A stretch of 64,000 nt of DNA from an uncultured Bacillales bacterium (GTDB lineage: Bacteria > Bacillota_I > Bacilli_A > RFN20 > CAG-449): assembly GCA_945929875.1 (NCBI GenBank), contig CAMEOO010000002.1, forward strand, positions 65,813-129,812, read 5' to 3'. The notes below the pieces were generated by a model. The model searched no databases, was not told the origin of the DNA, and saw only the letters and a program-made list of their open reading frames with translations. This document shows positions 46,665 to 64,000 of the stretch, in pieces; positions within the stretch are counted from its first letter, which is position 1, and the number at the start of each line of letters is the position of its first letter. Position numbers and translations under genes: made by a program.

Positions 46665-46749
46665 TAAAAAAATATTATCTTTTTTTTGTTGTTTATCTTT
46701 GATAAATGTTTTAAAGTAAATAAGTGAAAATAGAAAGGCATTAAGTTAT

Positions 46750-62100: not shown

Positions 62101-64000
62101 GCCGCTTATGCACGAAATATCTTTACTTATTATGAAAAAGATGGAATGATTTATGTTAACTTTGTTAATCCGATAGAAACCTTTGAATACAAAGATGGAA
62201 TAGTCTTTAGAATAGACTTATTTAGAAATACTTTAAGAGTAGTTTCTTCTTCAAATTCTAAAATGGTTGATTTGATCTATGTAAATCAAAATATCAATGA
62301 AGGAATCTACGTTACTTTTGACAACAATCAAATTCAAATGAGCGAATCGTTAACTGATTCATTAGAAGAACTATATAGTTACATTAATATCTATAATAAA
62401 GATGGTTTAGTTACTGATGAAAGTAAATCAGAATATATCGATTGCTCTTATGTCGATTTTAATCAACCTGGATTCTATTCAGTAGGTATTAAGACTTATA
62501 TTGGTGAAGATTTAGTATATAAGTATTATGGAATTCAAGTTTTAGAACCAATTTACTATGATCACCTCTTAGTGGGAAATTATTCTTCAATCACTAATTC
62601 AAAGTATACTTTTAAATTTGATGCTTTTGGAAATTGTTCAGTTTCTTATTTCAATAATAGTTCTGATTTTGCAAACTATAAGGGATCAATTATCTTTACC
62701 GATGAAACTAACTTTAGCTTTACTGGAATTTGTCTAGAAGATGAAACAAAATCTATTACTGTAACTGGTAAAATTGAAGAAGATGGAATCATCACTTTAA
62801 AGATTAAAGGAAATAAAGAATTAAATAGTTACTTTATTAAAGAAGGAGTAGTAAGTAAGTCTACAGGCGCTTTAAATAATTATTTAAGAGCATTTACTAA
62901 CGGCGATAAAACTACATTCTTCTATTTGACTAATATCGAATCTACTGGAGAAAAAGTCGAGGTAGCTTCTATTAATAATATCGATCCTTTCACTAGTGGA
63001 TCAATTATTAAGATTTCTCGCCCTAGTGGAGAAGAGATAGTGACTGTTAAAGTATTGAATTGGCAAAGTACTTATTCTGGCCTTCAACTAAGCGATTCCT
63101 ATAAAGGAGAATATCTAGATAGTGAAGGACTAACTTTGTCACTAGATGGATTTGGAAAGAGTGAAACTAAATTAGGAGTGGCTTTACTTGAAGAAAAGGA
63201 ATATAATTATTATCCTATTTCAAATACATTAATTGCTTTATTAGATGAAACTAGCACTTTAATGAGCTATGCGGAATTATCATTTGATACTAGTAGTTTT
63301 GTTCTAATTAATGACGACTATAAAGATCACGCTATAGATGGGACATATGGAGTGATTCAATATAATAGCGTTTCTACTTCTTCATATCAACTTGCTATTG
63401 ATAAATTTGGGGTTGGTAAACTTACTTTAGAAGCTTCTTCTAGTGATGAAGAATATGAATATTCTTCTTCATCTAGTCAAACATTTACTGGAAGAATCGT
63501 TAGCTATAAAGAGAAAAATGGTTATTTAGTTTATGAATTTGTAGGAGTAACTTCAGATAAGACTCCAAAAACTATTACAGTTAGCATAACAAAAATACAA
63601 AATTATATTGTTAAATGTGTAGGAGTTGGAGAAGAGGTTAACTTCTCTTGCTACATGGTGAGCAACTATGAGTCGAAAATTACTTTTATCGGTAATGAAA
63701 GAAGTAAATATATTACTACAATTATTATTGATAATAATCCAGTTTATTTGTATTTCGAAAATAATAGCGCCGATTTAAAAATCGCAAGAATCGAAACCTT
63801 AAATGATATTGATTTTGGTCTTCGCGGGTCAATTTTCAACCTATATGTAGGTTCTAGTTTAATGATTGAAGGTGGAATGTGCACTCAATCTTCTTATACT
63901 CCTTATAATGGATATGTCTACGCTAATGAATATAAAGGAACATTTACTTCAGAAGGAAGTGAATCCTTAGTTTTAGATGGTTACGCTAGCTATATGTTTG
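59158..64000 (+). CDS. giant lipoprotein (>1614 aa, 3'-truncated by the window edge) with ~7 Ig-like repeats and a repetitive C-terminal region; absent from the ORF track
   Basis: ATG at 59158 after AAAGGAG. MNKSKKKLIIYPMILVGFTAGLVGC lipobox. I spot-checked frame 1 at 60001, 61021, 62041, 63001 and 63961 and found no stops. The track lists no + ORF here, as expected for an ORF without a stop inside the window. Confidence 0.85.
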   Translation, partial: MNKSKKKLIIYPMILVGFTAGLVGCKKGGASSSISSSETTDSSSSSISSSIDSSTSSSNISSDSSSTSEESSSSVQLVEVVSLHEEITIKNDVIFKYDYTSLFSITVDGESITVSEDMIDTSNIVNKEGRYEITCTYLGKTASCFVVVEKVETVVVNAKVTTIEIKQKEVDSYDFTSLFSVTEKNRPVSITQDMISSTVKSEEGTYQVTCTYKNVSKSIEVIVTSSYNVEIFESYKNYELTLNELETFDYTKLFSIYVDGKFTPFNKDLIDTSEVVDPQVNDEFNISITFQIEDVIKTKTTKITIVDEKEVVVNAKNLVIYPNSKTIDLTTLFSVYEGGEKVNVTSSMITGFINYDKIGNNEITLSYKGTSKTCNVEVRKGVLIQYATSDKIVIKKGTNQSTYNFANDFIVSVNGTKFNLNNTYVDSSTVDFSTEGEYEAIITIPYGENSEDKTLTSYQLKITYVVTNINAVVNVKEAVVTLDYGTTSYNLLKNVTSKVNGNNMIVTDNPEWATDPTCTYVEVVSDPIDFTKSGTYEVVINAYPYGTNEDPLVVSYQLVIKSAVVISEADKTTFFTGDSAYLKDMFIVTKNGVEVDITNDMVEGKVDFSTPGVYTLTLEYEGEKALAKVVVLDSSMKGEYSTCLTNIVASSSSSSSSEENNGYDESNEEEEEVIVKTLDKMVIDDNGIKSIDGKTVINFNAVDEKTINFTIGSFNYLLHYEDGVVICEPLNKSHMKYSDSNRPYVYFKDDRYEIVNSLTINSSTDHVFASSSSCSTIELIKVKDLLEDKEMYFGVKFSLDEVNVSDYFYSYDYSYLNDENNVLSSLVVGNTYKINFLGEDVSFKLESSSLGKIIRTDSLDRKYKNMTFTGLVDSNSAVLSFNEYQNVTLTVNDEKVFSKIFNEYASTKIGGIDYDTNTIKVYSETDGYSYIFKLNLEDKTFVVEEKTSIQGIFSPTTSTSLSSSFFFFDGYGKGLASGLDSAAYARNIFTYYEKDGMIYVNFVNPIETFEYKDGIVFRIDLFRNTLRVVSSSNSKMVDLIYVNQNINEGIYVTFDNNQIQMSESLTDSLEELYSYINIYNKDGLVTDESKSEYIDCSYVDFNQPGFYSVGIKTYIGEDLVYKYYGIQVLEPIYYDHLLVGNYSSITNSKYTFKFDAFGNCSVSYFNNSSDFANYKGSIIFTDETNFSFTGICLEDETKSITVTGKIEEDGIITLKIKGNKELNSYFIKEGVVSKSTGALNNYLRAFTNGDKTTFFYLTNIESTGEKVEVASINNIDPFTSGSIIKISRPSGEEIVTVKVLNWQSTYSGLQLSDSYKGEYLDSEGLTLSLDGFGKSETKLGVALLEEKEYNYYPISNTLIALLDETSTLMSYAELSFDTSSFVLINDDYKDHAIDGTYGVIQYNSVSTSSYQLAIDKFGVGKLTLEASSSDEEYEYSSSSSQTFTGRIVSYKEKNGYLVYEFVGVTSDKTPKTITVSITKIQNYIVKCVGVGEEVNFSCYMVSNYESKITFIGNERSKYITTIIIDNNPVYLYFENNSADLKIARIETLNDIDFGLRGSIFNLYVGSSLMIEGGMCTQSSYTPYNGYVYANEYKGTFTSEGSESLVLDGYASYMF
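59383..61055 (+). repeat. about seven tandem ~70-90-aa Ig-like (DUF5011/Big-type) protein repeats
   Basis: Recurrent pattern [DY]xxLF-S/V-x-V-x-G-x(5-8)-MI-x-S/T-x-V-x(3-5)-G-x-Y-E/Q-V/I-T-x-T/S-Y. Example pair: DYTSLFSITVDGESITVSEDMIDTSNIVNKEGRYEITCTY and DFTSLFSVTEKNRPVSITQDMISSTVKSEEGTYQVTCTY. Confidence 0.75.

Follow-up and report, generated by a model that had tools for sequence, protein, structure and literature searches.

What does an uncultured bacterium gain from a run of five lipoprotein genes, the first coding for a giant protease, that takes up more than a quarter of a 64-kb stretch of its genome? The stretch, referred to below as the window, comprises 64,000 nucleotides (nt) of an uncultured Bacillales bacterium (GTDB lineage RFN20, CAG-449; assembly GCA_945929875.1, contig CAMEOO010000002.1, positions 65,813 to 129,812), and the genes, named g1 to g5, lie at its 3' end. 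Widespread residents of the gut that lack cultured representatives include RF39-like Bacilli and Christensenellales-like Clostridia with small genomes, which must obtain amino acids and lipids that they cannot make. An initial annotation, made from the sequence alone, had proposed that g1 to g5 form an undescribed system for proteolysis and adhesion. We find that they almost certainly belong to a conserved six-gene cassette. This cassette may encode a membrane-tethered surface machine that harvests extracellular protein, a reading to which we assign a probability of about 50%. What is new here is a surface protease system with novel accessory families in uncultured gut bacteria. No description of the cassette was found in the literature that we searched on surface proteases, lipoproteins and gene clusters of RF39 and Christensenellales, a search that had most subscription journals outside its reach; to this extent the locus is indeed undescribed.

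Five lipoprotein genes in the window

Five consecutive open reading frames (ORFs) on the plus strand occupy positions 46750-64000 and cover 27% of the window. The fifth is cut by the window end.

46750..54204, + strand: g1, 2484 aa; lipoprotein, S8 protease of the cell-envelope-proteinase type fused to a BspA-type leucine-rich-repeat (LRR) solenoid
54217..54771, + strand: g2, 184 aa; lipoprotein without a Pfam or NCBIfam family
54934..56880, + strand: g3, 648 aa; lipoprotein with an apparent Ser-rich tether, paralog of g4
56909..59077, + strand: g4, 722 aa; lipoprotein with an apparent Ser/Thr-rich tether of ~55 aa, followed by the core
59158..>64000, + strand: g5, >1614 aa; lipoprotein with an apparent Ser-rich tether, Big_3 immunoglobulin (Ig)-like repeats and a conserved core

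The translations bear out the claim of five same-strand genes with lipoprotein signal peptides. Each N-terminus combines a basic n-region and a hydrophobic stretch with a lipobox (LTGC in g1, LSSC in g2, ITSC in g3, LCAC in g4 and LVGC in g5). In g3, g4 and g5, the lipobox cysteine is directly followed by 50-60 Ser/Thr-rich residues of low complexity, which look like a flexible tether. The mechanically called ORF of g3 begins with a TTG at 54910, and the ATG at 54934, which stands behind an AAAGGA ribosome-binding site, is the likelier start.

A conserved six-gene cassette

Whether the genes co-occur and keep their order in related genomes was the check proposed with the initial annotation, and the outcome was positive. 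Relatives were probed by tblastn with the window proteins, and synteny was compared in 74 loci, 65 of them collected with a g4-family profile (one genome per GTDB species) and 9 on further contigs. Wherever flanking sequence exists in these 65 species representatives and 9 contigs, g1, g3, g4, g5 and a sixth gene, g6, follow each other in one order and on one strand. Orthologs of g1 are 42-70% identical to the window protein in all loci (tblastn). The same gene order was seen around each of five g4 homologs with 65, 58, 40, 40 and 38% identity: an S8-PA-LRR giant of ~2450-2500 aa, proteins of ~185 aa, ~650-930 aa and ~700-1030 aa, a Big_3 giant and a Flg_new giant. Intergenic gaps in relatives are 0-79 nt from g1 to g5 and 11-692 nt between g5 and g6, and lipoboxes are present in most orthologs of g2 to g6. 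That a conserved six-gene cassette exists is close to certain. The five-gene unit of the initial annotation stands as a co-inherited locus, but the full unit is larger, with six genes and ancestrally twelve, including opp genes and a small membrane protein (see below). Judging from the relatives, the window gives a truncated view, in which g5 is incomplete and g6 would lie beyond position 64000.

By record title, the carriers fall into two groups. The first comprises metagenome-assembled genomes (MAGs) labelled Bacilli, 'Mollicutes', Anaeroplasmataceae or Acholeplasmatales together with CAG:698, CAG:288 and CAG:324 genomes; in GTDB terms, this group is RF39-type. The second comprises Christensenellales-like Clostridia, with MAGs labelled Clostridia, Christensenellaceae, Eubacteriales or Oscillospiraceae. 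All named sources are animal guts (human, Hadza, goat, sheep, deer, rabbit, mouse, chicken, giraffe and sage-grouse). The G+C content (GC) of the loci ranges from 0.28 to 0.59, so that the cassette fits the base composition of widely differing genomes.

In a neighbour-joining tree built on g3+g4, the low-GC Bacilli mostly form a single clade and the high-GC Clostridia split into several further ones, with a few exceptions. The window clusters with the GC-0.5 'Bacilli' MAGs L010 and L011 and with CAG:288. The tree is compatible with an ancient cassette that was passed on mostly vertically, with some transfer. The relatives nearest to the window are 99%-identical fragments, followed by species at 58-75% identity. 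Conservation of order in at least 65 species and two classes, for a cassette of ~23 kb (~30 kb with opp) whose g1 is ~50% identical overall, points to a conserved function of central importance.

Two more observations concern individual carriers. The closest relatives, L010, L011, L004 and L075 (58-75% identity in cassette proteins), have a locus GC of 0.49-0.52 versus ~0.31 in the window, which is a large compositional shift inside one cassette lineage. L044 (CP091735.1, 'Clostridium sp. nC29_bin.1', a complete 2.0-Mb genome) contains the cassette with each gene split into ORFs of 233-575 aa, owing either to pseudogenisation or to indel errors of a long-read assembly.

Two simple explanations were considered and set aside. 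A role in anti-phage defence or as a mobile element was rejected, as PADLOC gives generic subtilase matches alone, GC tracks host range, and the g3 and g4 tree largely follows taxon labels. A wall-less, Mollicutes-like host is not a sufficient explanation of the lipid anchors, as Clostridia-labelled carriers keep their lipoboxes and the window encodes a LysM-GH18 protein.

The protease-LRR giant g1

The first protein is best described as a lipid- and helix-anchored variant of the cell-envelope proteinases (CEPs). The following parts can be distinguished.

46750..46815, + strand: signal peptide with lipobox LTGC, Cys22
47377..48765, + strand: S8 catalytic domain, aa 210-672, interrupted by a PA domain at aa 483-551; Pfam Peptidase_S8, E 1e-38
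48862..49227, + strand: Fn3-like domain (fn3_5), aa 705-826, similar to the A-domain of CEPs; Pfam E 2.4e-9
49357..50499, + strand: conserved middle region, aa 870-1250; no named family
50500..51009, + strand: Big_2 Ig-like region, aa ~1251-1420; Pfam E 3e-8
51010..53499, + strand: BspA-type LRR solenoid, aa ~1421-2250; LRR_5 (PF13306), E 4e-134, 8 stretches
53500..54201, + strand: C-terminus with a helical stalk, aa 2251-2455, then a membrane helix and basic tail, aa 2456-2484; weak DUF3829 match

The motifs of the catalytic triad are intact and stand in subtilase order, with AILDSG (DSG), HGTHVAG (HGTH) and GTSMASP. The GTSMAxP motif around the catalytic serine was found in 58 of 59 g1 orthologs, and HGTH and DSG wherever the locus covers that region. 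In a search of PDB sequences, residues 205-868 aligned with the structures of C5a peptidase, SpyCEP and CEPs (7edd, 5xya, 1xf1; E ~1e-56 to 4e-63), and the LRR region matched 4fs7, 4gt6, 4h09 and TpLRR. An LPXTG motif is absent from the C-terminus (...YPTAIALLSLSLLSLGWIIKKFVF), and the NCBIfam SGO_0316 LPXTG family matches g1 with 270 bits at a cut-off of 1400. A hydrophobic C-terminal helix with a K/R tail is shared by 50 of 60 orthologs. The protein is predicted to be tethered to the membrane at both ends, by lipid at the N-terminus and by a helix at the C-terminus.

Conservation varies along the protein. In 54 orthologs, identity to window g1 is 64-78% in the catalytic domain, 64% in the PA domain, 54% in the middle region (aa 870-1250), 42-46% in the LRR solenoid, 37% in the helical stalk and 20% in the membrane helix. 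An alignment of 23 sequences of the middle region has a mean column identity of 64% and 76 invariant columns. The conservation of g1 indicates strong purifying selection. As the surface LRR is conserved between bacterial classes and host species, it points to a conserved ligand or partner and not to a rapidly evolving, host-specific target.

This last point bears on a different view of the locus, in which the cassette is an organelle for adhesion and immune evasion. Its giants would bind mucus, epithelial or bacterial surfaces, and g1 would cleave complement, chemokines or immunoglobulins, in the manner of ScpA, SpyCEP and dentilisin, which attack host defence proteins. C5a peptidase and SpyCEP are the closest solved relatives of g1, the BspA-type LRR, Big_2, Big_3 and InlB-type B-repeats are typical of adhesins and internalins, every named source is an animal gut, and dentilisin provides a precedent in that it joins adhesion to host-protein degradation. 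However, the binding modules vary unusually little between hosts as distant as humans, ruminants, rabbits, mice and birds (42-46% identity for the LRR between classes), whereas host-specific adhesins usually diversify. The linkage of a peptide-type importer in 53 of 57 loci, described in the next section, is also unexpected for an adhesin. We consider a role in host or partner interaction rather unlikely.

Linkage to a peptide importer

A second set of loci contained ~7 kb of sequence upstream of g1. It consisted of 80 metagenome loci from animal guts (L075-L154), obtained with the g1 middle region as probe and forming 39 clusters at 95% identity; here, too, the cassette genes share one order and strand. 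Clustering of the upstream ORFs recovered a conserved set, which by Pfam and NCBIfam consists of an SBP_bac_5 lipoprotein that is unusually long (884 aa), two permeases (BPD_transp_1, OppC_N) and two ATPases with an oligo_HPY domain. Among the 57 loci that extend more than 6 kb upstream of g1, 53 (30 of low GC, 23 of high GC) have all four component types, that is the binding protein, both permeases and the ATPase, in this region and on the same strand. Domain content identifies the set as a predicted Opp/Dpp-type ATP-binding cassette (ABC) importer.

Between the last ATPase gene and g1, 63 of the 80 loci encode a conserved protein of 77 aa, named g0, which carries the motif VDDGHTxYxM and has a membrane helix at its C-terminus (tblastn). 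Locus L076, in which a representative importer is found (L076:33-7363), has twelve genes in succession, with every gap at most 62 nt.

The importer also bears on the idea of a self-directed envelope array, a structural surface coat whose partners are matured or turned over by g1 and which has no feeding role. The Opp linkage would be left unexplained by such a coat, a protease of the CEP type with a PA domain and a large solenoid for substrate binding exceeds the needs of a maturase, and S-layer-type domains (SLH or similar) were not detected in Pfam scans. Strict, stoichiometric-looking synteny and the strong conservation of all parts would nevertheless suit it, and there are precedents for co-encoded lipoproteins that are processed by a protease, as PrtP cleaves PrcA. 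In a comparable way, SphB1 matures FHA. We regard an envelope array as very unlikely.

The lipoproteins g2, g3 and g4

For three of the five window proteins, the initial annotation could name no family, and g2, g3 and g4 are indeed unmatched in Pfam and NCBIfam. The proposed paralogy of g3 and g4 was also confirmed: BLASTP aligned the two over their full length with 23% identity (E 1e-10), as distant paralogs. A sequence-level relation of g2 to the modules of g3 and g4 was tried as well, and hhalign found none, nor any among the g4 modules themselves.

Orthologs of g2 are alignable end to end, and some carry an uncleaved N-terminal membrane helix in place of the lipobox. The gene was found by tblastn in 25 of the 74 loci, and an ORF of its size occupies the slot between g1 and g3; g2 is evolving fast. 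Orthologs of g3 are 30-65% identical in all loci. An exact copy of the window g4 is not on record; the search with g4 gave 170 homologs, none of which has a Pfam family in the core, and the lipobox cysteine is invariant in 66 sequences. In an exhaustive profile search, the g4 family reached 123 clusters (E < 1e-30), ~80 of them full-length g4 clusters (50% identity). It is a sizeable yet restricted family, and its profile had no meaningful match among PDB sequences.

Many relatives have an Ig-like domain (Big_2, I-set, Ig_3 or aBig_2) between the lipobox and the core of g3 or g4 (e.g. L005:7682-9988, L009:7170-9956, P0047-P0106). The window proteins have Ser/Thr-rich linkers at this position. 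Domains and linkers look like interchangeable spacers that keep the core off the membrane.

Structure prediction suggests a fold for these proteins. The AlphaFold (AF2) model of g2, with a predicted local distance difference test (pLDDT) score of 83.7, has a helix followed by a curved sheet of eleven strands. Foldseek matched it to Mycobacterium tuberculosis LprG (3mh8; E 1e-5, probability 1.0), Staphylococcus aureus SAOUHSC_02783 (4eg9) and LolA, at template modelling (TM) scores of only 0.40-0.46 and root-mean-square deviations of 7-9 A. The g4 model (pLDDT 84.7) has a tether predicted as disordered, and its Foldseek matches are LolA3, LppX, RseB and many LolA entries, with target-normalised TM scores of only 0.23-0.52. 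The secondary structure of the g4 model suggests at least two helix-plus-sheet modules and a smaller third domain. The g2 and g4 models may thus resemble the open beta-barrels of LolA, LprG and LppX, at fold level at most.

These matches raise the possibility that the cassette serves to harvest lipids or lipoproteins. The barrels of g2-g4 would pull lipids or acyl chains out of dietary or host lipoproteins, membranes or vesicles once g1, g5 and g6 had captured these and stripped them of protein, and carriers unable to make fatty acids would so be supplied with them. In line with this, the folds matched by the g2 and g4 models (LprG, LppX, LolA, RseB) bind lipids or acyl groups, and fatty-acid biosynthesis is completely lost in RF39 (PMC6784871). 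Genes for DegV (FakB-type), a DAGK-like lipid kinase and GDPD elsewhere in the window are circumstantial support. The fold match is weak, however, the LolA and LppX_LprAFG families have no sequence relation to g2-g4, and the adjacent transporter is of the peptide type and not of a lipid type. Lipid harvesting as the function of the cassette seems to us unlikely.

The giants g5 and g6

In g5, the Big_3 repeats are recognised by Pfam (E 1.6e-14) and the conserved core extends over ~900 aa. The family profile found no relatives among PDB sequences. The orthologs are 1143-2326 aa long overall, and 2272-2308 aa long in the closest relatives of the window. In the relatives, the g6 giant is 1400-2050 aa long and contains Flg_new domains (InlB B-repeats), and the InlB B-repeat was the sole match of its profile among PDB sequences. 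A module of ~127 columns is common to g5 and g6 (hhalign probability 90%, E 1.6e-6). Given the relatedness of g3 to g4 and of g5 to g6, the cassette seems to have grown by internal duplication.

The N-terminal ~300 aa of g6 (e.g. L005:16698-21701) contain repeated Cys/His-rich motifs of the form HxHxY..W...EPT.T..G.A.K.C.CG, for which no family match was found. They may be small repeats stabilised by metal or disulfides.

Proposed function

Peptide import, rather than immunoglobulin cleavage, is the best functional anchor for the cassette. We propose that g1 would be an active cell-envelope proteinase, held at the membrane by its lipid anchor and C-terminal helix. Its LRR solenoid and the giants g5 (Ig-like) and g6 (Flg_new repeats), as extended binding arms, would capture protein or particulate substrate, which g1 would cleave into oligopeptides. 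The peptides would be taken up by the Opp-type ABC importer, encoded directly upstream in most carriers and presumably elsewhere in the present genome. As LolA/LprG-like open barrels on flexible tethers, g2, g3 and g4 might hold hydrophobic products or ligands, or might act as scaffold and mature the protease; such an accessory role would parallel that of PrcA and PrcB in the dentilisin complex. We infer that the six proteins assemble into a physical complex, and likewise the protein substrate, the nutritional role and the part played by the LolA-like proteins.

The needs of the carriers are compatible with this proposal. RF39 genomes lack the biosynthesis of several amino acids, of fatty acids (a complete loss) and of vitamins (PMC6784871). 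In Lactococcus, an amino-acid auxotroph, the oligopeptides that PrtP releases from protein are imported through Opp (PMC7480361).

Several points weigh against protein harvesting. Neither the opp genes nor the gene for the 77-aa protein were found by tblastn within the 64 kb of the window. L075, the nearest metagenome relative of the window (75% identity in the middle region of g1), likewise has neither upstream of g1. The coupling to an importer is therefore indirect for this genome, and likewise for L075; the window lineage has separated the importer module from the cassette. The best NCBIfam matches of the importer are Opp4A/B/C, OppD and OppF, all below equivalog cut-offs, and transporters of the SBP_bac_5 type also carry nickel, opines and other ligands. 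Relatives of g1 of the C5a-peptidase type act on host immune factors, not on food, and LRR, Ig-like and Flg_new modules are classic parts of adhesins. A peptide-feeding model, moreover, requires no set of five conserved accessory proteins. Finally, the LolA-like assignment of g2-g4 is made at the level of predicted fold (TM 0.40-0.52): there were zero sequence matches to Pfam LolA and LppX_LprAFG, and hhalign of g2 with the g3 and g4 modules aligned signal peptides alone and detected no internal repeats in g4.

Protein and lipid uptake could also be combined. The cassette would then be a multi-subunit, lipid-anchored surface organelle of uncultured gut Bacillota with small genomes. Membranes, vesicles or lipoprotein particles of dietary or host origin would be captured by the doubly tethered protease-LRR giant and the two repeat giants; lipids and fatty acids set free from them would be shuttled to the cell along chains of LolA/LprG-like barrels, and peptides would enter via Opp. 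One barrel would be contributed by g2 and probably at least two each by g3 and g4. If true, one machine would explain a life of the RF39 type without fatty-acid and amino-acid biosynthesis. We hold such a combined organelle to be improbable.

Should the cassette be a feeding apparatus, this would suggest supplying intact protein or lipoprotein substrates, and not free nutrients, in culture media for its carriers. Structural biology would gain four or five new protein families, and the cassette would serve as a genomic marker of this lifestyle.

Sequence signals of the locus

Three signals were found in the spacers of the locus and at its upstream border.

46635..46654, + strand: intrinsic terminator of hydA, 8-bp stem then T-run (terminator scan); fold z -3.2
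54866..54893, + strand: promoter-like hexamers TTAAAA-16-TATAAT in the g2-g3 spacer (promoter scan)
59100..59134, + strand: stable hairpin in the g4-g5 spacer, -19 kcal/mol, z -3.2

As the initial annotation had noted, the locus starts after the hydA terminator, which marks its 5' boundary in this genome. The genes upstream of this point code for HydC, HydB and HydA, a hydrogenase cluster of the electron-bifurcating type (Pfam). The translational coupling of g1 and g2 that it proposed is in keeping with the sequence, as the stop codon of g1 overlaps the ribosome-binding site of g2 (TAGGAGGA...ATG).

The spacers in the window measure 162 nt between g2 and g3, 28 nt between g3 and g4 and 80 nt between g4 and g5. 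The AT-rich 162-nt spacer is particular to this genome, as the g2-g3 gap in relatives is 8-24 nt. Internal promoters and terminators had been placed in both longer spacers, and this held in part. The g2-g3 spacer contains the promoter-like match, and such sites are not in excess over shuffles. A terminator at 54772-54933 was rejected, as this spacer forms no stable hairpin (fold z +1.5). The hairpin of the g4-g5 spacer is real and is possibly an attenuator or partial terminator; the consensus terminator scan missed it because the G+C of its stem is below the scan criterion.

A T8 tract (46680-46687) and an A8 tract (47111-47118) had been mentioned as possible sites of slipped-strand switching. 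Both tracts are present. However, A/T runs of at least 8 are under-represented in the window (17 observed versus 34.5 +/- 6.4 expected from a dinucleotide Markov model), and the tracts therefore give phase variation no support.

Other genes in the window

A second [FeFe]-hydrogenase-like protein (556 aa, Fe_hyd_lg_C and a putative Fe-S domain) is encoded just upstream of hydC/hydB/hydA, where its gene overlaps one for a SpoIIE/PP2C-type phosphatase (39555-42387). The pair looks like a sensory hydrogenase and a phosphatase that regulate the HydABC cluster.

Genes for a DegV-family protein (fatty-acid-binding, FakB-type; 32516-33385), a DAGK/YegS-type lipid kinase (12316-13251) and a glycerophosphodiester phosphodiesterase (21229-22266) fit the use of exogenous lipids and are unlinked to the cassette. 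On the minus strand, positions 4128-5399 encode a protein that combines two LysM domains with one GH18 domain. Since peptidoglycan or chitin is the ligand of LysM, a cell wall may be present in this organism even though its surface cassette consists of lipoproteins only.

An AbiEii-type nucleotidyltransferase toxin (305 aa) and an overlapping upstream ORF of 208 aa without a Pfam match (37612-39130) are probably an AbiE-type toxin-antitoxin pair. Positions 15781-21190 contain the overlapping genes of a PD-(D/E)XK nuclease (787 aa) and a UvrD-type helicase (1020 aa), an AddB/AddA-like pair, and positions 22519-25173 encode a bifunctional aldehyde/alcohol dehydrogenase of the AdhE type.

Comparison with known systems

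By analogy, the cassette may work like PrtP/Opp and like dentilisin. The initial annotation had drawn a parallel to PrtP and PrtM of lactic acid bacteria. The PrtP side of it holds and is strengthened by the adjacent Opp-type importer; the PrtM side does not, as a PrtM/PrsA-type rotamase is absent from g2-g5 (Pfam/NCBIfam). The core of g1 is that of the lactococcal and lactobacillal CEPs: a PA domain sits inside the S8 domain, an Fn3-like A-domain follows, and a helical spacer precedes the anchor. As in the lactococcal PrtP-Opp system, the carriers are auxotrophic, and an Opp-type importer is adjacent in most relatives. Lactococcal PrtP differs in being attached through an LPXTG motif and wall spacer, where g1 has a lipobox and a C-terminal membrane helix. 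Lactic acid bacteria have no counterpart of the five further conserved lipoproteins. A BspA-type LRR insert of 800 aa and the conserved 380-aa middle region also set g1 apart.

Dentilisin of Treponema denticola is an acylated S8 protease that forms a surface complex with lipoproteins of 23 kDa and 70 kDa from the same operon, one of which it cleaves (PMC8167434). The prcB-prcA-prtP operon shares with the cassette a lipobox-containing S8 protease and co-operonic accessory lipoproteins, acylation being predicted in the cassette. Even the sizes of the accessory proteins (~23 and ~70 kDa) are close to those of g2 (~20 kDa) and g3/g4 (~72-80 kDa). In contrast to the cassette, dentilisin belongs to a spirochete outer membrane, its PrtP of 766 aa lacks PA, LRR and Ig domains, and giants with Ig-like or Flg_new domains are absent. 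Its accessory proteins are reported to be unique to oral treponemes, with PrcB having no homologs outside oral Treponema (PMC8167434).

C5a peptidase (ScpA/ScpB) and SpyCEP are the best solved-structure matches to residues 205-868 of g1, that is to the catalytic domain, the PA domain and the first Fn3 domain. They differ in being single, LPXTG-anchored virulence proteins with narrow host substrates, without LRR, accessory operon, lipid anchor or linked transporter.

The suggested parallel to the MIB-MIP system of Mollicutes is valid as a concept, since there, too, a serine protease is encoded together with a binder and both are tethered to the membrane. It does not extend to kinship. MIP is of the DUF31 type and g1 of the S8 type, a two-gene pair stands against a six-gene cassette, and neither DUF31 nor MIB families were found in g1-g5 at E <= 0.01 (Pfam/NCBIfam).

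For LolA, LprG and LppX, a possible likeness lies in the predicted fold of g2 and of the g4 modules, in which an N-terminal helix leads into a curved, antiparallel sheet; like the cassette proteins, LprG and LppX are lipoproteins. They differ in that no sequence similarity to g2-g4 was detected, and in that two or more modules seem to be strung together in each of g3 and g4.

The Sus-like loci of Bacteroidota have no homologous proteins and differ in polymer (glycan instead of protein), in envelope and in transporter (TonB-dependent instead of ABC). They are comparable by analogy only, in that surface lipoprotein enzymes, several binding lipoproteins and a dedicated importer are encoded together and serve a single class of polymer.

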